In this document: one piece after another, positions 6,627 through 62,799 of the stretch | Position numbering within the stretch: the stretch's first letter is position 1 | Layout of the letters: each line of letters opens with the position of its first letter | IMG/VR virus record: IMGVR_UViG_3300041405_000400 | DNA: 64,000 nucleotides | Origin: an uncultured virus (IMG/VR IMGVR_UViG_3300041405_000400) | Lineage: Duplodnaviria > Heunggongvirae > Uroviricota > Caudoviricetes | Strand: one strand, 5' to 3' | The notes under the pieces: model-generated | What the model saw: only the letters and a program-made list of their open reading frames with translations | What the model was told of the DNA's origin: nothing | Database searches by the model: none | Position numbers and translations under genes: made by a program

Positions 6627-7159
6627 ACTGAAAGCCCGACGCTGGCCATGATTGCTCGCTCGATCAAATAGGGCTTGTAGATGAAAAACTGTTCTTTACC
6701 CGTGGACGCATGCTTAAGTGCTTCATTGCCGCACAGAGATGCGCCGATCAAGTTGACTTCGAATCGAGCCTTATCGCCTTCGCCGTCAATCAAGCAGATC
6801 CGGCGAAGACCGGGGGTTCCGATCAGATGGATTTCTCGCCAGCTTTCTACAGCCTTGACTTGAAGATATTGATCGCCGGGCAGAACCAGCGGCGTCTTGA
6901 ACTCGCAAGCCTTAATGACAATGGTCAGCCACTCTCTCAGCTCTTTTTGTTTCTCGACAGAAAGGGCCGCTTTGAATTTTTCCGTGCCCTTCTCTAGCTG
7001 GTATTCGCAATATCCTGCGACCACGAGCTGCTGGGATGAGGTGACAGAGGTGGAATGCATGCCGCTTTCGGCTTTCAGAGCGAGGCCACGATCAACGTAG
7101 CTGAGAAGAATTGGGTCGGCGCAGGCCAATACACTGATTTGCTCGTTAGCGTCGCTCAT
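6623..7159 (-). CDS. hypothetical protein, paralogue family A
   Basis: Start MSDANEQ lies after the AGGGGG RBS and downstream of the promoter at 7184-7222. Confidence 0.75.
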   Translation of the reverse strand: MSDANEQISVLACADPILLSYVDRGLALKAESGMHSTSVTSSQQLVVAGYCEYQLEKGTEKFKAALSVEKQKELREWLTIVIKACEFKTPLVLPGDQYLQVKAVESWREIHLIGTPGLRRICLIDGEGDKARFEVNLIGASLCGNEALKHASTGKEQFFIYKPYLIERAIMASVGLSV

Positions 7160-7183
7160 GCAATCCCCCTGTTTAATGAGCGA

Positions 7184-7222
7184 ATTATACGTAAGCCTTG
7201 TCTTCGTGTCAATATCATTGAC
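7184..7222 (-). promoter_or_regulatory. sigma70 promoter with GTCA-N7-TGAC palindrome
   Basis: TTGACA-N17-TATAAT; plus strand GTCAATATCATTGAC at 7208-7222. Confidence 0.9.
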
Positions 7223-7250
7223 TTCGATAATTAATTGAAAAATATCGTAC

Positions 7251-8093
7251 CTAAAGGGTTGCTGGTTTGTACTTTTTATCAAACCGCTGCAAGTGCTCGT
7301 GCATGCGCCGACGCTCAGCATCGACCTGCTGGCAGGCCTGTGGCAGTCTTTTGCCAACAAACGCCTCATGCATCAGTTCAGGCGCAGGCAGAGCCTTCAG
7401 GAAGTCGATTCCCCATTTGCAATAAAGCATGCGCCCTTCGTTGCCCAGGCAAAGTCCAATGATGGACTCACACAGTTTTGAGGTGTTCTTTGACCAGCCC
7501 TCTGCCTCCAGTATTTCGGTCAGGTAGGCACGAACAAACCGGACGCACAAGGTAATGCGGTTCAGCTCATTACGCTTGTCGGCCTTGTAGGGGGCGTAGA
7601 AATTGTGAAGGCGCGAGCGCAGGCACAGGATTGGGTTGATAACCGGCACTTGAATTCCCCTCATCGGCAGCAGCTCAATGCCATCAAGGATCTCTTTGCG
7701 ATCAAGGCCACCGACTTCGTGCAGGATATCAATGATCACTTCGCGGCCAGTCTTGTCTATGACGCAGGTGGTCATGGCCAAATTGACGGTGATATCGAAG
7801 TTCTGCGGGCGCTTGAAAGGAATGCCGAGCTTTGACTCGCAGAATTCGATGGAGCTTTTCACACCATAAAAATCGAGGTCGTCACTGTAGGCAGCCTGGA
7901 ACTCGACAGCGCGCTTTTCAGTCAGCAAGTACCGGGCGTACCAAAAAGCCAGGGCCTGTCCACCGACGACAATCAGTTGGTGATTGTTCACCACATCCAC
8001 TATGTCCGCGTCCTTGTAAATGCTTTCCACAAGGTCTTGGAAGTCCTGGAAATTGGCGAGGTAGTCAGTTTCGTCGAGTAGATCCCGACTCAT
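7251..8093 (-). CDS. Pol-beta-superfamily nucleotidyltransferase-like protein (possible toxin)
   Basis: IVVGGQALAFW and SDDLDFY motifs, later IDIL; helical C-terminus. Confidence 0.7.
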   Translation of the reverse strand: MSRDLLDETDYLANFQDFQDLVESIYKDADIVDVVNNHQLIVVGGQALAFWYARYLLTEKRAVEFQAAYSDDLDFYGVKSSIEFCESKLGIPFKRPQNFDITVNLAMTTCVIDKTGREVIIDILHEVGGLDRKEILDGIELLPMRGIQVPVINPILCLRSRLHNFYAPYKADKRNELNRITLCVRFVRAYLTEILEAEGWSKNTSKLCESIIGLCLGNEGRMLYCKWGIDFLKALPAPELMHEAFVGKRLPQACQQVDAERRRMHEHLQRFDKKYKPATL

Positions 8094-14424: not shown

Positions 14425-15207
14425 TTAAGCAGCCAGCTCTTCAAATGTGTACAGGTGAACAACACCAGTTTTACAAATTCCGTGATCAATCAGGCGATTA
14501 TTGCCGATCTTGATCGCGCCCTTATCTTCTACGAACACTATGTTATGCCCGCAAATGACCAATGGTGCCCCTTCAGTTCCCAGATCATCAAGATTCGCCT
14601 CGGGGCCTCTGGCCTTGCGAGTACTCACCTTGGTTCGGCCCCATACCGCAGAGTCGAGCATGTGATGGGTTTCATCGTCCAGGCTGTACACGAAGTCATC
14701 TGGCAGTGTTTCAAGCTGATCGCGCAATTCACTCCACGTGTAGTCTGGGTCTACCTCCGCATGAATCAAACCGGCAAGCATGTTGCCCTGCTCATCTTGA
14801 TATTCAATGGCCAGCGGCATATGGGCAAAGGTTTCTACGATGCGCTTCAGCTCATGATCAGTTTGACCCAACAGCCAAGTCCCGCCATTTCTCACGCAGG
14901 TTCTTGCATCTGCTGACTTGTTGATCTTGGCGTCATCGCCAGACAGCAGAAGCTCAGCCGTTTTGAACACAAAAGCACAGTGGTTACCCTGAAGGCTTAT
15001 AAACCAGCTCTCTTCCAGAAAATCCGCCGCCCGGTGACTTTCTGGGCCGCGATCTGTCAGGTCACCCAGGCAAATCAGACGATCTGTCTTTTTGTTAAAC
15101 CCTGCGGCTTCCAGCGCTTTTTCAACGAGCGTAAAACAGCCGTGGATATCGCCAATAAAGTAGTCGATGCCAAATAGATTGCGTTTCAGATAGAGGATTT
15201 TGCTCAT
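14425..15207 (-). CDS. metallophosphoesterase, PphA/lambda-type Ser/Thr protein phosphatase
   Basis: GDIHG, GDLTDRGPES, GNH, HA, GH motifs. Confidence 0.92.
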   Translation of the reverse strand: MSKILYLKRNLFGIDYFIGDIHGCFTLVEKALEAAGFNKKTDRLICLGDLTDRGPESHRAADFLEESWFISLQGNHCAFVFKTAELLLSGDDAKINKSADARTCVRNGGTWLLGQTDHELKRIVETFAHMPLAIEYQDEQGNMLAGLIHAEVDPDYTWSELRDQLETLPDDFVYSLDDETHHMLDSAVWGRTKVSTRKARGPEANLDDLGTEGAPLVICGHNIVFVEDKGAIKIGNNRLIDHGICKTGVVHLYTFEELAA

Positions 15208-45158: not shown

Positions 45159-45187
45159 TTGACAGGAGAGCATTTCATCGTTAATAT
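45159..45187 (+). promoter_or_regulatory. sigma70 promoter of ncRNA-1
   Basis: TTGACA-N17-TAATAT. Confidence 0.78.
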
Positions 45188-45193
45188 TTACTC

Positions 45194-45414
45194 AACGGCG
45201 CCGCTCCAACGGCTAGTGCTTCAGGGCATGACATCAAGCAGAGTGGAATCTGCACCTGGGGGTTCTAACATTCCCCGCAATGTTGGCGTGTGGCAAACGT
45301 TAGATCAGGCATGAAGAGCTGGCGAGCCCGGAAATGGGCGTTTGAGCCAATAGCAATTGCTTGCACTTGATGTACATGTATCGGCTACAGATTAACCGCT
45401 TCGGCGGTTTTTTT
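45194..45414 (+). ncRNA. structured ncRNA-1 (~220 nt), family unknown
   Basis: Own promoter and terminator; no ORF; helix ACATCAAG/CTTGATGT encloses several hairpins; homologous to the 3' domain of ncRNA-2. Confidence 0.75.
45394..45414 (+). terminator. terminator of ncRNA-1
   Basis: AACCGC-TTCG-GCGGTT-TTTTT. Confidence 0.88.
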
Positions 45415-45430
45415 GTTTTTGCAAACAGTG

Positions 45431-45459
45431 TTGACAACTTAAAAAAGCGTCGTTATAAT
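45431..45459 (+). promoter_or_regulatory. consensus sigma70 promoter of ncRNA-2
   Basis: TTGACA-N17-TATAAT. Confidence 0.9.
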
Positions 45460-45465
45460 TCGCTG

Positions 45466-45843
45466 TGTTGAGAGTGGAGCATAATTAGCGATGCCGTCCG
45501 TTATTGGAGGACGTTAAAGGCTATGTCTTCGGACTTACACCGCCATCAGCCGACTTGCGACCGGCCCCCTCAAACGATTTTAAGAGTGATTGCGGCATCC
45601 CTGGCGGGCTCCTCGCGGTCATTCTTTTTTAAACGTGCCGACTCTCATCGGCTAGTGCCTCCGTGCATGACGAGAAACAGGAGAGACACCTGTAGCGGAA
45701 CGGCCAACGCGGACCAGTTGGCGGGTGGCAGCGTCAGTCCCAGCTATGCGAGCTTTAAATGGCGTCTGAGCATAGTAACAAGGATAGCTCGACTGGTTAC
45801 CGCAAGTAACTAAAGGGCCGCATATTCGTATGCGGCCTTTTTT
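45466..45843 (+). ncRNA. structured ncRNA-2 (~380 nt), family unknown
   Basis: Own promoter and terminator; nested helices TGAGAGT/ACTCTCA, GGAGC/GCTCC, GATGCCG/CGGCATC; UUCG hairpin; 3' domain homologous to ncRNA-1. Confidence 0.75.
45812..45843 (+). terminator. terminator of ncRNA-2
   Basis: AAAGGGCCGCATA-TTCG-TATGCGGCCTTT-TTT. Confidence 0.9.
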
Positions 45844-46103
45844 ATTGCTTGGAATTAACAAGCTCAGTGTCGGTGGGCAGATTAACTGTCGTATCGGCGC
45901 CAGGGCTTTAAAAGCCGACCGCTTTGGTGTTTTTGGCAGGGAGGAAGCGACATTTTATAAGATTTATGTTCGACACGAATTCCACCCAAACACAAGGATT
46001 TAAGTGGTCTTCTAATGAGCCCATCGTCACAATGGCCTAATCATGGAGTCTTGCGCGGCTAGTCGTCTAAGTGAACTAATAAAACTCGAAGACTTCGATC
46101 ATT

Positions 46104-47482: not shown

Positions 47483-48355
47483 TTAAGCAACTTCGATTTC
47501 CCCGAAAACTTCCTCCAGCTTGAATCCATCGGCATCCACCAGAGAGACATCTTTTTTCAGCACTGGCTTGGCCGCGTTGAAGATAACTTCCACCGGGTTG
47601 GCTATCGAACTGAACTTCGGCATGTCGATCACATCGATCTTCGAGCGAATAATCGCCAATTCCGGATTGCTGCGTGCCATGTGCTTCTCCGGTAGCTTTT
47701 CTAGCTCCTCGACCGTGAACGGTTTGGAGAAGCTTGTGCGTTGCACATAGGTGCCACGTTTGAAGCTCACTGGGTAGTCGTTCCAATTGATGCCGTTTTG
47801 GAACAGCAATTCTTGTTTCTCCGCGCCATTTTTGCCTTTCAGCTGGCTCGTGGTATAGAAACCAGAAGCAGCCATGGTGATGCTGTTTTTGGTAGCATCC
47901 CACTCGCGCCACAATACCGAGTTAGCCGCTTCAATTGCGGTTGGAACCTGCCAGACACGGGCGTCGAAGGTCGGCAGTCGCCGGGCGTACTTTGGCATGG
48001 TGCGCAAGATTTCGTTGTAGAAACCGATAGTGGCTTGAGCCGCCAGCTGCGAAATCATTTTGGTGATTCGGGCGTTAAACCACACAGCCCGTTTTTTGGC
48101 GTGCGGGTTGAACACCAGGGTGATTTCATCACTCTGCGTATAGCCGATACAGGCGTTGGTTTCCTTGACCAGAAACTTGGTGGTTTCGATCATCGCATTT
48201 GTCATCAACTGATCAAATGGTCGGCCCATGCCTTTGGTGAATTTGCTGAAACCACGACCGTCTACACGGGCAATGATCGGAATGCCCGGCATAAATTTAC
48301 GAGCAGCTTCAAGCCCTTCGTATTCCTTCATCCGGTCGCCAAGTGCGTCGTTCAT
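47483..48355 (-). CDS. Thg1-like tRNA(His) guanylyltransferase / 3'-5' polymerase
   Basis: LGDRMKEYE, RVDGRGFSKFT, YTQSDEITL, FDARVW, WREWDATKNSI, GINWND. Confidence 0.95.
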   Translation of the reverse strand: MNDALGDRMKEYEGLEAARKFMPGIPIIARVDGRGFSKFTKGMGRPFDQLMTNAMIETTKFLVKETNACIGYTQSDEITLVFNPHAKKRAVWFNARITKMISQLAAQATIGFYNEILRTMPKYARRLPTFDARVWQVPTAIEAANSVLWREWDATKNSITMAASGFYTTSQLKGKNGAEKQELLFQNGINWNDYPVSFKRGTYVQRTSFSKPFTVEELEKLPEKHMARSNPELAIIRSKIDVIDMPKFSSIANPVEVIFNAAKPVLKKDVSLVDADGFKLEEVFGEIEVA

Positions 48356-55884: not shown

Positions 55885-55924
55885 ATGGTACGCATCCAAA
55901 TGACACATTGTCAATGTTATTGAC
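55885..55924 (-). promoter_or_regulatory. sigma70 promoter with palindrome
   Basis: TTGACA-N18-TACCAT; GTCAATGTTATTGAC at 55910-55924. Confidence 0.8.
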
Positions 55925-56767: not shown

Positions 56768-57065
56768 TGGCGATCCCTGATTAGCAGAAGGGTGCTATCG
56801 ATGGAATATCGAAATGGATTGGACTGTCAGACGATGGGCTGCCGGTGCTTTTCTTCTTATCTGACTTTTTCTTCTGGTTTTTTTCGGAGGCGATTTTGCT
56901 CGACGTGGTGTTGGTGTAATTGCTTGAAGTGCCAGATGGTTCAGGTACATCAAAACCGAAATCAATTTCCATGGTTTGTCTCACTGTGTTATTAGGAATT
57001 CATGTGATTGGGCATGAGTAACGGAGGGCGCAACAATTAATTATTGTGAGCCCCAATACGTGGAC

Positions 57066-57257
57066 TCAGGCATTATCTTTGGATGGGTATTGCTTGTTGA
57101 AGGCGGCAATCATCGCCTCACTGCCCTTCTCAGCTAGCAATTTTCTCGCCCCCAACAAAACTGGATCATCATCCTGGACGACAGAAGGGATCTCAAGCAC
57201 GGTGTAAGGCCCGCGTTGTACGGCCTTGATCATTGCTTTTGGTTCATTATTTTCCAT
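57066..57257 (-). CDS. small hypothetical protein
   Basis: Overlaps the upstream stop. Confidence 0.6.
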   Translation of the reverse strand: MENNEPKAMIKAVQRGPYTVLEIPSVVQDDDPVLLGARKLLAEKGSEAMIAAFNKQYPSKDNA

Positions 57258-57678
57258 AACTGGCCCACGCAGGTTGAATCGCGATGATGGTGTAGTGGCA
57301 ACTCAAGGCGTCACCGATGGAGTGTGAAAATGCGCGCCATCCTTTACGGTTGGAGCCATCGTGATCAGGCTCATCGCCGTAATCGGTTTCTTTCAACCAG
57401 ATTGTCGCCAGTTGTGCTGCGCCAAAAGGATTGATGTCTCGGCCAAGTGGTTCTGAATGCCGGTCTTCATGCCAGAGAAAGATCATGGTAGGCACGCCAT
57501 CGGCGTCCTCAATCAACCGTGTCATGTGATCGTTGGTGGGAATACCGAAGTGTCGGGTCTTCTCCTTGAGCTTGGCATAACGAACGTGAGCCGCTTTGCC
57601 GCCCGTCATGGCCAAGCGGATGACCAATTCAAGTTCTTGGTCGCCGATTGAGGTTACATCGATAGAAAGGTTATCCAA
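57247..57678 (-). CDS. phage-type hypothetical protein
   Basis: EPDHDGSNRKGWRAF..IQPAWASYGK block. Confidence 0.72.
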   Translation of the reverse strand: MDNLSIDVTSIGDQELELVIRLAMTGGKAAHVRYAKLKEKTRHFGIPTNDHMTRLIEDADGVPTMIFLWHEDRHSEPLGRDINPFGAAQLATIWLKETDYGDEPDHDGSNRKGWRAFSHSIGDALSCHYTIIAIQPAWASYGK

Positions 57679-57707
57679 TGGAGCTACCTGTTCAATGTGA
57701 AGAAAAT

Positions 57708-57736
57708 AAAAAAAGACCCGTCAGTGCGGGTCTTTT
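57708..57736 (-). terminator. terminator of ncRNA-4
   Basis: Minus strand AAAAGACCCG-CACTGA-CGGGTCTTTT-TTT. Confidence 0.85.
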
Positions 57737-58260
57737 GGTCGAAGCCTTCCCGCCAGCTTCGTATTTTATCTAACATTCAGTCCTTCAGGCGTCTTAGCGG
57801 CTACGCCACCATTGGATCGGCTGTCGTTCTGGTGTCGCGGGTAACTCTGTTCGCGCATAGAGGCTTTGCCGACTCCGGCTCCGCCTTTGGGTATCGCTAC
57901 TTGAAGCTGATTAGTGCCTCCGACAACCAAGATTCCGGTCTCTCAGTTGTTTTCGAGCTTCGAATTCCACAGGAACATGTGGATTTAATTCGACTGGGGC
58001 GTGACACGCAACAGGTCAAAACCTGCTGGATCATCTCTCTGCTATCCTGCGCACCTTCGACTCACAGGAGTGGTAGTCCCTCTGACCGCATTTGCCAGAG
58101 CCTATCTGCTAAACACATGGAATCATCCAGGTGTTGCTGGTCTGCTAGGTCAGCACAGCGTTGACCTCATTACCACTCCCAGCCGTCGCCATGGAGTTTA
58201 CGACCCTTGGCAGGGATTGACGGCAAAACATCCAGCCATCAACCATCTGTTTCCTGCTTG
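57708..58260 (-). ncRNA. large structured ncRNA-4 (~550 nt), family unknown
   Basis: Own promoter and terminator; no minus-strand ORF of 60 aa or more; many nested helices whose G-U pairs favour the minus strand. Confidence 0.72.
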
Positions 58261-58266
58261 GATTAC

Positions 58267-58295
58267 AATATATCGCTCAGAACATCGCCTGTCAA
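58267..58295 (-). promoter_or_regulatory. sigma70 promoter of ncRNA-4
   Basis: TTGACA-N17-TATATT. Confidence 0.8.
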
Positions 58296-58383
58296 TGTTT
58301 ATGTTTTATTATTTATAAAAATCTGCGATTACGTTGCATCGCGAATAGCGTCTGGTCTTTAACCATGGCGACTGCTTGAACGC

Positions 58384-58737
58384 TTATTTCTTTTCAGGAT
58401 CGCAGAAGCTGGCAACTTCAATGTCATAATCGCCAGTTTTTTCATTTTTGACGATGGATTTCAGATACTGCTGACAATACACAGGTCTGTCGTTCTGGGT
58501 GGAACGGATCTTATACAGCTTCAGACGTTTTCCGGCCACGTCTCCCTCAATAAAAGAGACGTTATTCAGTGCGGGAGCGCTGTTAATTTCTAGCCCTGGG
58601 GTGGCGGGTGCCAATGCAGGTGTTGCTGCTTGAACTTCAGGTGCCTGTCGGTTCTGATGAGCACAGCCGGATAATGTGAGCACCAAAAACGCGGCACTTA
58701 GGATTGTGATTGATTTTGAACTGCGTAAATTTAACAT
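58384..58737 (-). CDS. lipoprotein
   Basis: Lipobox TLSGC; GAGGA RBS. Confidence 0.78.
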   Translation of the reverse strand: MLNLRSSKSITILSAAFLVLTLSGCAHQNRQAPEVQAATPALAPATPGLEINSAPALNNVSFIEGDVAGKRLKLYKIRSTQNDRPVYCQQYLKSIVKNEKTGDYDIEVASFCDPEKK

Positions 58738-58761
58738 CTTTATTCCTCTAAGTTATTTGTA

Positions 58762-59358
58762 CTACATTCCGCTAATTACGAAAAGTGGATCGAAAAATAC
58801 CGTTCTGATTTTGTAATCGATGTGTTCGTCATACAAATGTCCCAAATAGATCGGGCTGATTTGATTGATGACCGTATGCAACTGCTTGATGTGCTCAAGG
58901 CCATTATTTTTTACATCGTCTGGCAATTCCCAGGCAGTCGCGATCTTGATGAACGCTGCTTCTGTTTGGGTTTGATCGCAAAAAAGAGGAATGCCATGAG
59001 TTGACTCAACTATTTGTTTGTTGAGCCAGCTGAAAATATCGGATTGTGATTCCGTGTCAGTATTCGTGGGCTTGGGGTGCTGATACTGAAGCCAGAAGGT
59101 TGAAATCAGGCTACCGTTGTCGATATGCATATCTAGACACAGACTGTATCGCGTATCAAAAAGCGTGATCCCATCACCATCAAAGCGATCAAGATTTTTA
59201 CTTTCGCCCAAAAACATATCCAAGGTGAAATAGCTGCAACTATCTTCATCCAAATCGGTGGAACTGGTGCCTTTCAGTGAATCAAAAAGCGCTTGATGAT
59301 CATTGATGAGCATTCGAAGATATTGATGTGCAGACATTCTGGACTTCATGTGACCCAC
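58762..59358 (-). CDS. hypothetical protein
   Basis: 198-aa ORF. Confidence 0.65.
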   Translation of the reverse strand: MGHMKSRMSAHQYLRMLINDHQALFDSLKGTSSTDLDEDSCSYFTLDMFLGESKNLDRFDGDGITLFDTRYSLCLDMHIDNGSLISTFWLQYQHPKPTNTDTESQSDIFSWLNKQIVESTHGIPLFCDQTQTEAAFIKIATAWELPDDVKNNGLEHIKQLHTVINQISPIYLGHLYDEHIDYKIRTVFFDPLFVISGM

Positions 59359-59949: not shown

Positions 59950-60732
59950 TTATTCGACCTCGCCGATCAGTTGTTCGAACGTGTAGAGGATGGCATCTTC
60001 GTTCCGGTACAGGCCGTGATCGATGTAACGGTTATTGGCTACACGAAATGGCCCACCGTCTTGCTGCGGGACAATTGAATGGCCACACACAAGGTACGGA
60101 ATGCCGTCTGTAATGTAAGCATGCGATTCAGCATCCTTATTCAGCTCGGCGGCTTTGATTTTTGTGCGGCCCCATAGGCACTGGTGCAGCAGGTCGCTGT
60201 TTTGAGTGCTTAGAGATGATACAAAGTCCCATGGCAGTTCTTGCAGCATCACTGCCAACTCCGTCCAACTGGAGCCCATAGGCACCTCGCCATGAATGAG
60301 GCCGAGCAGTGGTGTCCCGTCATGATCCTGGTATTCGATGGCAATTGGAAGATACTTGATCGTTTCGATGAAGTCTTCAAGCACTGCTCGTTTCTGATTC
60401 TCGATCCACTCTCCCCCATTGTTGTAGGAGATCCTGGAGTCTTTATCTTCACGGGAGTAATCGTGCATCAACACCTGACGGGCTGCGTGGGAGGTTACGC
60501 AGTCGTGATTACCCTGAACCGCAAGAGCCCACCCCTCCTTAAGCAAGTCCGCGATACGATGGCTCTCTGGGCCTCTATCGCATAAATCCCCTGCCAAAAA
60601 CAGCCGGTCTTTGGATTTATCAAAACCAACACGTTCGAGTGCTTCTTCAATTTTAGTGATACACCCATGCGCATCACCTGACCAGTAATCAGTCCCTTTG
60701 GTGTTGCGTTTCACTTCCATGAATTTCGTCAT
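59950..60732 (-). CDS. metallophosphoesterase, PphA/lambda-type (paralogue of 14425..15207)
   Basis: GDAHG, GDLCDRGPES, GNHD, HG, GHS. Confidence 0.92.
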   Translation of the reverse strand: MTKFMEVKRNTKGTDYWSGDAHGCITKIEEALERVGFDKSKDRLFLAGDLCDRGPESHRIADLLKEGWALAVQGNHDCVTSHAARQVLMHDYSREDKDSRISYNNGGEWIENQKRAVLEDFIETIKYLPIAIEYQDHDGTPLLGLIHGEVPMGSSWTELAVMLQELPWDFVSSLSTQNSDLLHQCLWGRTKIKAAELNKDAESHAYITDGIPYLVCGHSIVPQQDGGPFRVANNRYIDHGLYRNEDAILYTFEQLIGEVE

Positions 60733-62062: not shown

Positions 62063-62101
62063 ATTATACCAAGAAACGCCATCTATGTCAATTGTGCTGA
62101 C
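62063..62101 (-). promoter_or_regulatory. sigma70 promoter with palindrome
   Basis: TTGACA-N17-TATAAT; GTCAATTGTGCTGAC at 62087-62101. Confidence 0.88.
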
Positions 62102-62144: not shown

Positions 62145-62708
62145 CTACAGCAGGCCTCGGAAGGTCAGGCTGATTCGTGGGCCGCACACAGCAGAGTGCT
62201 TTGGAATGCGGTGCAGATCCAGGTGCTGCATGCCAGCGGGCATTTCCAACAAGCTGCCGGAGGCCAGACTGATCTTCACCACTTCAGCCGCTTCACCTTC
62301 GGGCACACGAGGTGGCCTTGGCTTGAACCACAATTCGCGGACGGCGCCAAAGCTGTACACCAGGATCGGGCGCGAGTGGTCGATGCTTGGGCTATCATCG
62401 GCGTGCCAGCCCAAGTGGTTATGCTGGTTTTCGTACCCATTGATGAACAGCGCTTCAAACTTGCAGCCGTACTGCGCCTCAGCTTGAGCCTGAATGCCTT
62501 TGCAGATCTCATCCCACACCGGATTGGGGGTATACGTCCGTGCGTATGCGCCTTCACCATAGGTATACGGCTCACCCTTGTCGCTGAAGAAGACTTCTTT
62601 GCGCGGTGCTTCGCGCTGTTCCCATGGTAGATTTTTCCACAGGTGATCGAAGATCTCGGCGGCATTGGCAATCGCGTTGGGGGTGTAGATCGGCATCGTG
62701 GGCTTCAT
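62145..62708 (-). CDS. AlkB-family 2OG-Fe(II) dioxygenase
   Basis: NGY..LGWHADD, SFGAVR, GSLLEM..Q..LHRIPK, RISLTFR; start MKPTM lies downstream of the promoter. Confidence 0.92.
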   Translation of the reverse strand: MKPTMPIYTPNAIANAAEIFDHLWKNLPWEQREAPRKEVFFSDKGEPYTYGEGAYARTYTPNPVWDEICKGIQAQAEAQYGCKFEALFINGYENQHNHLGWHADDSPSIDHSRPILVYSFGAVRELWFKPRPPRVPEGEAAEVVKISLASGSLLEMPAGMQHLDLHRIPKHSAVCGPRISLTFRGLL

Positions 62709-62760
62709 GTGTTCATTCCGTTTCTCGTGAGATTCCGTTTGTTGGAGTATCTGAGCGAGG

Positions 62761-62799
62761 ATTATAGCAAGCCTGCGACATTCGGTCAATGTCATTTAC
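62761..62799 (-). promoter_or_regulatory. sigma70 promoter with near-palindrome
   Basis: TTGACC-N17-TATAAT; GTCAATGTCATTTAC. Confidence 0.8.

Follow-up and report, generated by a model that had tools for sequence, protein, structure and literature searches.

A stand-alone transcription unit for a candidate structured non-coding RNA of about 550 nt in an uncultivated huge phage

The DNA analyzed here is a single stretch of 64 kb (hereafter the window), whose minus strand is densely filled with small genes, most of them orphans. Recognizable among their products are SSB, Hsp20, a Ham1-like protein, two metallophosphatases, two Mrr-like nucleases, a Stealth protein, GNAT, an RNase T-like exonuclease, a Thg1-like enzyme, AlkB and a polymerase-beta-like protein. 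The best phage matches of the window proteins came from jumbo and huge phages; the Thg1-like protein is 53% identical to one encoded by a 635-kb uncultured phage, and the proteins neighbouring the locus described below were found on contigs of 443 kb and 1.14 Mb. The latter may be a prophage or a mis-join, since it is larger than any phage among the matches seen. Judged by these matches, the setting is an accessory region of an uncultivated huge phage. Four genes of the window (47483-48355, 14425-15207, 59950-60732 and 62145-62795) look aimed at RNA or nucleic-acid repair, the set consisting of a Thg1-like 3'-5' polymerase, an AlkB-like dioxygenase and two NinI/metallophosphatase paralogues with a weak likeness to the phosphatase part of an RNA-ligase family.

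Within this region, a non-coding unit lies between two minus-strand genes. The upstream gene (58384..58737) encodes a predicted lipoprotein of 117 aa, with a signal peptide and an LSGC lipobox read by eye, whose relatives are 91-92% identical. The operon to which it belongs is closed by a weak terminator-like hairpin retrieved by the terminator search (58325..58342, minus strand), just ahead of a sigma-70-type promoter on the same strand (58267..58295). The downstream gene (57247..57678, minus strand; 143 aa, relatives 91-99% identical) has no promoter of its own and starts ~30 nt past an intrinsic terminator (57701..57736, minus strand); its product gave a weak match to HTH_72 (E 0.0047, below the cut-off). 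None of the four ORFs from 57678 to ~55964 has a consensus promoter: the next promoter is at 55914, and sites at 57196 and 57100 reach only 9 of 12 positions. Between the promoter and the terminator lies the body of the non-coding RNA (ncRNA), about 550 nt from the predicted start near 58260 to the end of the U-tract (57708..58260, minus strand), which we assessed by coding score, RNA-library contigs and Rfam searches.

The promoter and the terminator had both been predicted from the sequence, and both are there. The -35 box TTGACA (58295-58290), a 17-nt spacer and the -10 box TATATT (58272-58267) agree with the sigma-70 consensus at 11 of 12 positions and are preceded by AT-rich sequence. Promoter-like sites in a 3-kb region are no more numerous than in shuffled sequence (4 found, 4.1 expected), so the argument for a promoter rests on the quality of this single site (58295-58267) and on the pattern of the window as a whole, in which 24 of the 32 TTGACA sites of the minus strand have a -10-like hexamer 16-18 nt further on. 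This pattern indicates that the phage genome is read from many host-type promoters, that of the ncRNA being one of them. Around 24 near-consensus sigma-70 promoters on the minus strand carry a GTCA.T-like motif ~10 nt before the -35 box (for example, at 62091, 54620, 51721, 49805, 28217, 19981, 13016, 9058 and 7212), a class that the repeat search also detected, as a 25-nt direct-repeat family. The GTCA.T motif is common to most other promoters of the window and is absent from that of the ncRNA, which has the AT-rich stretch instead. At the other end of the unit, the strong terminator that had been placed at 57708-57736 is found at 57736-57711; its 10-bp stem contains five G-C pairs, carries a 6-nt loop and is followed by seven U, and its hairpin has a pair probability of 0.96 in ensemble folding. 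Read from these signals, the transcription unit is real: the host RNA polymerase should be able to start at the promoter and should stop at the terminator.

Searches of sequencing runs returned 24 rows from 21 studies, with eight rows recorded as RNA and one possibly being the source of the window itself. Four runs were compared with the window, two of DNA (X2 and X5) and two of RNA (X9 and X14), while six further RNA rows (X11, X13 and X15-X18) and the other DNA rows were left out of the expression and habitat counts. Relatives of the whole locus are present in X2, on a 98.6-kb contig, and in X5, a run labelled with a named organism. Contigs lying on the unit were also assembled from two RNA libraries belonging to two studies. 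The soil metatranscriptome X9 yielded one contig of 521 nt that falls wholly within the unit (57729-58249), shows 5 differences from the window and has a mean word depth of 211, contig depth being a poor measure of expression level. The peat metatranscriptome X14 yielded contigs on 57771-58116, 58087-58234 and 58087-58225, with 9, 5 and 13 differences, respectively; peat-type variants differ by up to 9% in the 5' part of the unit. As these contigs carry no strand, the strand of the RNA is deduced from its promoter and terminator and from the G-U pairs described below. The RNA contigs end near 58249 (X9) and 58234 (X14), where the DNA contigs continue beyond, a weak hint of a 5' end that agrees with the predicted start near 58260. 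The flanks (56800-57690 and 58258-59200) are without cover in X9 and X14, which we did not count as evidence.

Comparison with X2 showed that divergence is unevenly spread over the locus. Substitutions number 28 in 56800-57303 (5.6%), 3 in 57304-57707 (about 0.7%, plus deletions of 28 nt and 1 nt), 7 in the 558 nt of the ncRNA (1.25%) and 54 in 58368-59200 (6.5%); the piece 56800-58301 holds 42 differences, 38 of them listed and at most 4 unlisted. The quiet block at ~57304-58301, with 10 substitutions in ~1 kb, spans the ncRNA together with most of the downstream gene, so low divergence is not a property of the RNA alone, and its cause may be recombination of the whole block instead of selection on the RNA. 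Inside the ncRNA, the listed variants all fall at 58018-58231, in the 5' half; the X9 contig has zero differences in 57729-58017, and X2 has none among the listed differences in 57737-57989. X2 retains an intact unit next to a 143-aa gene that the 28-nt deletion has split. Pieces of the same protein (42 and 92 aa) are found in the database on the 1.14-Mb contig, where the gene is thus a pseudogene although the ncRNA is intact. Upstream of the unit, X2 carries 1436 nt ending in inverted repeats where the window has the 66 nt of 58302-58367; six bases separate this element from the -35 box, and the promoter is left intact. We take the element to be a probable insertion sequence; its ends recur on another contig of run X2.

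The unit does not look coding, and no reading frame is kept among the relatives. The longest minus-strand ORFs inside it have 54, 45, 33 and 30 aa, in agreement with the prediction that none would reach 60 aa, and its small ORFs belong to no Pfam or PHROG family. A codon score derived from 25 long window genes, which themselves score at least 0.10 (mean 0.25), gave negative log-odds, from -0.12 to -0.45, in every one of the unit's six frames. Two ORFs on the plus strand, 57697-58164 and 58001-58318, had been named as possible sources of a conserved product, and both are present in the sequence. The first, an antisense ORF of 155 codons (57697..58164), has a codon score of -0.086 and no match in Pfam or PHROG, and we judged it spurious. 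The change C>A at 58026 turns its codon 110 from TGC to TGA in all four runs compared. Its relatives in the protein database form a single cluster of two members (109 and 115 aa), which both end at window codon 109, and the database contains no shorter forms. The ORF is thus cut from 155 to 109 codons in all six relatives (four runs and two database proteins) and is not conserved.

Folding of the whole RNA gave -200.6 kcal/mol (z = -3.23), a value that none of 100 shuffled sequences equalled, compared with z = -2.54 for the plus strand of the unit. Among 14 coding control windows matched to the unit in length and strand, the mean z was -0.93, and one of them (z = -3.45) was at or below -3.23; since this control folds equally well, folding energy alone is suggestive, not decisive. 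The best-defined part is a 5' core domain of 197 nt (57990..58186, minus strand), in which an 8-bp closing helix surrounds a long irregular stem, a three-way junction and a hairpin at 58028-58009. This core has z = -3.67 (0 of 200 shuffles as good), its minimum free energy (MFE) structure is identical to the centroid (MFE frequency 0.086), and its helices have probabilities of 0.84-0.99, as a thermodynamic prediction only, with 0.98 for the closing helix (58185-58178/57998-57991). The 3' half (57737..57989, minus strand) is predicted to form short hairpins, including 57950-57923, 57920-57903, 57886-57861, 57836-57772 and 57761-57740, joined by single-stranded linkers. Its sequence is identical in the relatives compared, and folded alone it gives z = -2.03 (4 of 200 shuffles as good).

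Natural variants were set against this fold at 11 sites, three of which are unpaired in the MFE structure and eight paired. Half of the paired sites (58219, 58160, 58144 and 57950) stay paired as G-U, which holds for the minus strand only, and the other half (58121, 58027, 58026 and 58021) break the predicted pair. All variants seen are single-sided, and the number of compensated pairs is zero. An insertion and a deletion that flank hairpin 58129-58118 in one peat contig would shift its 4-bp stem by one step, not destroy it. As for the structure proposed in the original prediction, the local stems (CAGCAGGU/ACCUGUUG, UCCACA/UGUGGA and ACAACUGAGA/UCUUGGUUGU) occur in the sequence and most of them appear in the MFE fold, and G-U pairs in several helices agree with the proposed restriction of the wobbles to the minus strand. 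Two long-range helices had been proposed as well, one of 7 bp (58236-58230/58031-58025) and one of 9 bp (58179-58171/58075-58067). In the window both can form without a mismatch, yet neither appears in the MFE or the centroid fold, where their bases pair otherwise with probabilities of 0.89-0.98. The three relatives keep 5/7, 5/7 and 4/7 pairs of the first, and two of the three keep 8/9 pairs of the second. The nested, long-range, multi-domain architecture is not supported, as better alternatives compete with both long-range helices and natural variants damage them.

In order to assign the RNA to a family, we searched the window with the Rfam covariance models and found no match at the gathering score over all 64 kb; at E<=10, the region 57500-58500 gave six junk hits only, mostly on the terminator. 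ROOL (RF03087) and GOLLD (RF01998) had no hit at the gathering score in the window and were absent at E<=10 from 57500-58500. The model of OLE (RF01071) gave no hit, and the neighbours of the unit are a lipoprotein, ORFans and a phosphatase, with no oap-type linkage. No group I or group II intron model matched at E<=10, no reverse transcriptase or homing endonuclease is encoded within 3 kb, and ARAGORN found 0 tRNA or tmRNA genes in the 64-kb window. The original prediction, which could not assign the RNA to ROOL, GOLLD or OLE and saw no group I or group II intron core, stands in this respect after the Rfam search. We also considered and rejected two other classes. For a sponge of the CsrB/Rsm type, the RNA contains 13 GGA motifs where 12.4 would be expected (z = 0.26; 237 of 500 shuffled sequences contain at least as many), and the only Rfam trace of this type is rsmX on the terminator (14.6 bits, E 5). 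For a ToxI-like RNA of a type III toxin-antitoxin system, no tandem repeat was found in 57500-58500.

Homologous sequences were sought as well. Distant blastn against phages and plasmids retrieved no DNA homologous to the ncRNA, megablast of 40000-64000 against phages returned nothing, and viral, genome and metagenome contigs contained no exact match to a 22-mer taken from the invariant part. When the spurious plus-strand ORF was used for six-peptide scans, 378, 16 and 246 stretches matched, none of which was confirmed, and four flanking proteins had no close relative in viral contigs. Against five published huge-phage records (2.98 Mb), BLAST matches were at chance level (best E 0.31), and a single-sequence model of the 3' domain gave 0 hits, a search that had no positive control and shows little. 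In the collections searched, we found no homologue of the ncRNA outside one phage lineage, and hence nothing that points to a wider family. The literature search retrieved no description of such an RNA, which is weak evidence given that a text search cannot recognize a sequence. A second copy, paralogue or antisense target in the 64-kb window was sought as well, and only matches of 10-13 nt at E>=0.35 were found; a 9-nt complementarity between 57817-57809 and the start of the downstream gene is about what chance would give (by our own estimate, ~0.9 expected in 700 nt).

Elsewhere in the window, two or three further ORF-poor units running from promoter to terminator, with no Rfam family match, lie on the plus strand at 45159-45845. 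Unit A (promoter 45159-45187, terminator 45394-45409) is ~220 nt long and has z = -0.76. Unit B has a perfect TTGACA-17-TATAAT promoter (45431-45459) and an internal terminator-like hairpin (45604-45616), ends in a 13-bp terminator (45812-45841) and has z = -3.39. Unit A and the 3' part of unit B are paralogues, with 73% column identity. An 11-nt complementarity of the ncRNA to unit B (45653-45663) is at chance level, the duplex z being 0.08 for unit A and 0.01 for unit B.

On balance, we think that the locus is probably a stand-alone gene of a huge phage for an orphan, trans-acting, structured ncRNA of ~550 nt that belongs to a new family, a view that we hold with reasonable rather than high confidence. 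The original prediction of an undescribed large ncRNA thus survives in part: the stand-alone, non-coding unit of ~550 nt, outside any described family, is retained, and the long-range multi-domain fold is not.

The main alternative, in our judgement unlikely, is that the unit is a long structured leader acting in cis, with the terminator as the attenuator or antitermination checkpoint of the operon from 57678 to ~55964 and the terminated leader as the species that accumulates. Such a leader would fit the position of the 143-aa gene, which begins ~30 nt past the U-tract, and the want of a consensus promoter in all four ORFs down to 55964. It would also fit the 33-codon ORF (58145..58246, minus strand) at the 5' end of the RNA, the sole minus-strand ORF of the unit with a ribosome-binding site (AGGA, 5 nt before the ATG). 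However, the change at 58219 in X2 introduces a stop at codon 10 of this ORF, which we judged not to be a gene, and the change at 58231 makes it M6L in X2, X5 and X9. The terminator hairpin, with its probability of 0.96, has no competing antiterminator in the ensemble, and the first downstream gene is broken in X2 where the ncRNA is intact. Known attenuator leaders are, moreover, far shorter than 550 nt, and if this were one after all, it would be an unusual regulatory device in its own right.

We regard as improbable that the unit is a transcribed remnant, that is, a decayed gene or spacer without function, caught between a live promoter and a terminator. No homologue was found outside the lineage, no compensatory changes were seen and the low divergence is shared with the neighbouring gene, all of which a remnant would explain. 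Against this, no frame retains a coding signal or matches a family, the predicted fold of the 5' core is good (z = -3.67, MFE = centroid), the promoter and terminator have been kept beside an insertion and a broken neighbour, and the unit was assembled from the RNA libraries of two studies.

It is very improbable that the transcript is an mRNA for one or more very small proteins, of 33, 45, 54 or 30 codons. The 33-codon ORF, with its AGGA and its codon score of 0.155, would be the natural candidate, but it is the one interrupted in X2; in the 45-codon ORF, four of four variants are non-synonymous. The 54-codon ORF sits in the invariant part of the RNA, where natural variants are uninformative and it escapes this kind of test; yet it starts with TTG, has no clear ribosome-binding site, has no relative in the protein database and has a codon score of 0.02, below the 5th percentile of real 54-codon windows (0.114). 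Finally, an element acting at the DNA level, either a replication origin with a primer transcript or a packaging site, is brought to mind by a hairpin-rich, little-diverged stretch 3-4 kb from the polymerase-beta-like gene and by the ~550-nt primer RNA II of ColE1, but it is just as hard to credit, given a transcript ended by a strong terminator, the lack of iterons or tandem repeats, and G-U pairs and variants staying G-U that favour one strand as RNA.

If, as we favour, the locus is a gene for a stand-alone RNA, the host polymerase would transcribe it from the moment the phage DNA enters the cell, and the product would act as RNA, in trans. According to the folding model, it would form a compact 5' core of ~200 nt, closed by the 8-bp helix, followed by the 3' array of hairpins and linkers. 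This array, invariant in sequence among the relatives seen, would most likely be a docking platform for a protein or for a second molecule of the RNA. By analogy with what is suspected for other large phage RNAs, such a platform might serve as a scaffold or decoy in host take-over. Some polymerase probably reads through the terminator, which would allow the four promoter-less ORFs downstream to be expressed. A more speculative extension, which we put forward tentatively as a possibility, is that the RNA is the founding member of a new class of large phage RNAs, carried by huge soil phages and accumulating as a distinct molecule in the RNA pools of soil and peat, which would use the compact 5' core and the invariant 3' interaction array for RNA-only or RNA-scaffolded assembly of the GOLLD/ROOL kind during host take-over.

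Only a few large structured phage RNAs are known, GOLLD and ROOL among them, and solved structures have not revealed what they do, so that each new family would offer a fresh handle on them. ROOL is encoded by phages and prophages and, as far as the cited account goes, has no known protein partner or function (PMC12286853). The source of the RNA described here is a huge phage of soil and rhizosphere communities, in which phage RNA biology is almost blank. Since a close relative of the locus is present in a run labelled with a named organism (X5), the system may be reachable in culture.

ROOL, GOLLD and OLE resemble the RNA in nothing but size and setting. The gene for OLE lies on the chromosome of Gram-positive extremophiles, and OLE has partner proteins, whereas the ncRNA described here is phage-borne and has no neighbours of the OLE type. 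OLE itself is described as a highly expressed, structured ncRNA of ~600 nt (PMC3413148). In the jumbo phage RaK2 (NC_019526), we found three mutually similar ORF-free stretches of ~0.7 kb on the same strand (6768-7440, 191272-192009 and 279631-280365), which match their own profile with nhmmer E values of 1e-105 to 1e-251. This profile had no hit in the window at E<=10; BLAST of the ncRNA against RaK2 was at chance level (best E 0.31), and the model of the 3' domain found nothing in it. The RaK2 stretches are present in three copies, compared with one copy of the ncRNA in the 64-kb window. GOLLD resembles the RNA described here in being a large ncRNA of phages and prophages whose function is not known, but many GOLLD RNAs exceed 800 nt, compared with about 550 nt here, and they are often found near tRNA islands, whereas ARAGORN found no tRNA in the 64-kb window; a location beside tRNA islands is common in GOLLD and ROOL but not required of them. 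ROOL occurs in rumen settings and in Firmicutes; our RNA, in contrast, comes from a soil huge phage with proteobacterial-type signals, and it has neither a tRNA neighbourhood nor covariation-supported pseudoknots. With a size of ~580 nt, ROOL nevertheless falls in a similar size class to the ncRNA reported here, and both are phage-encoded.
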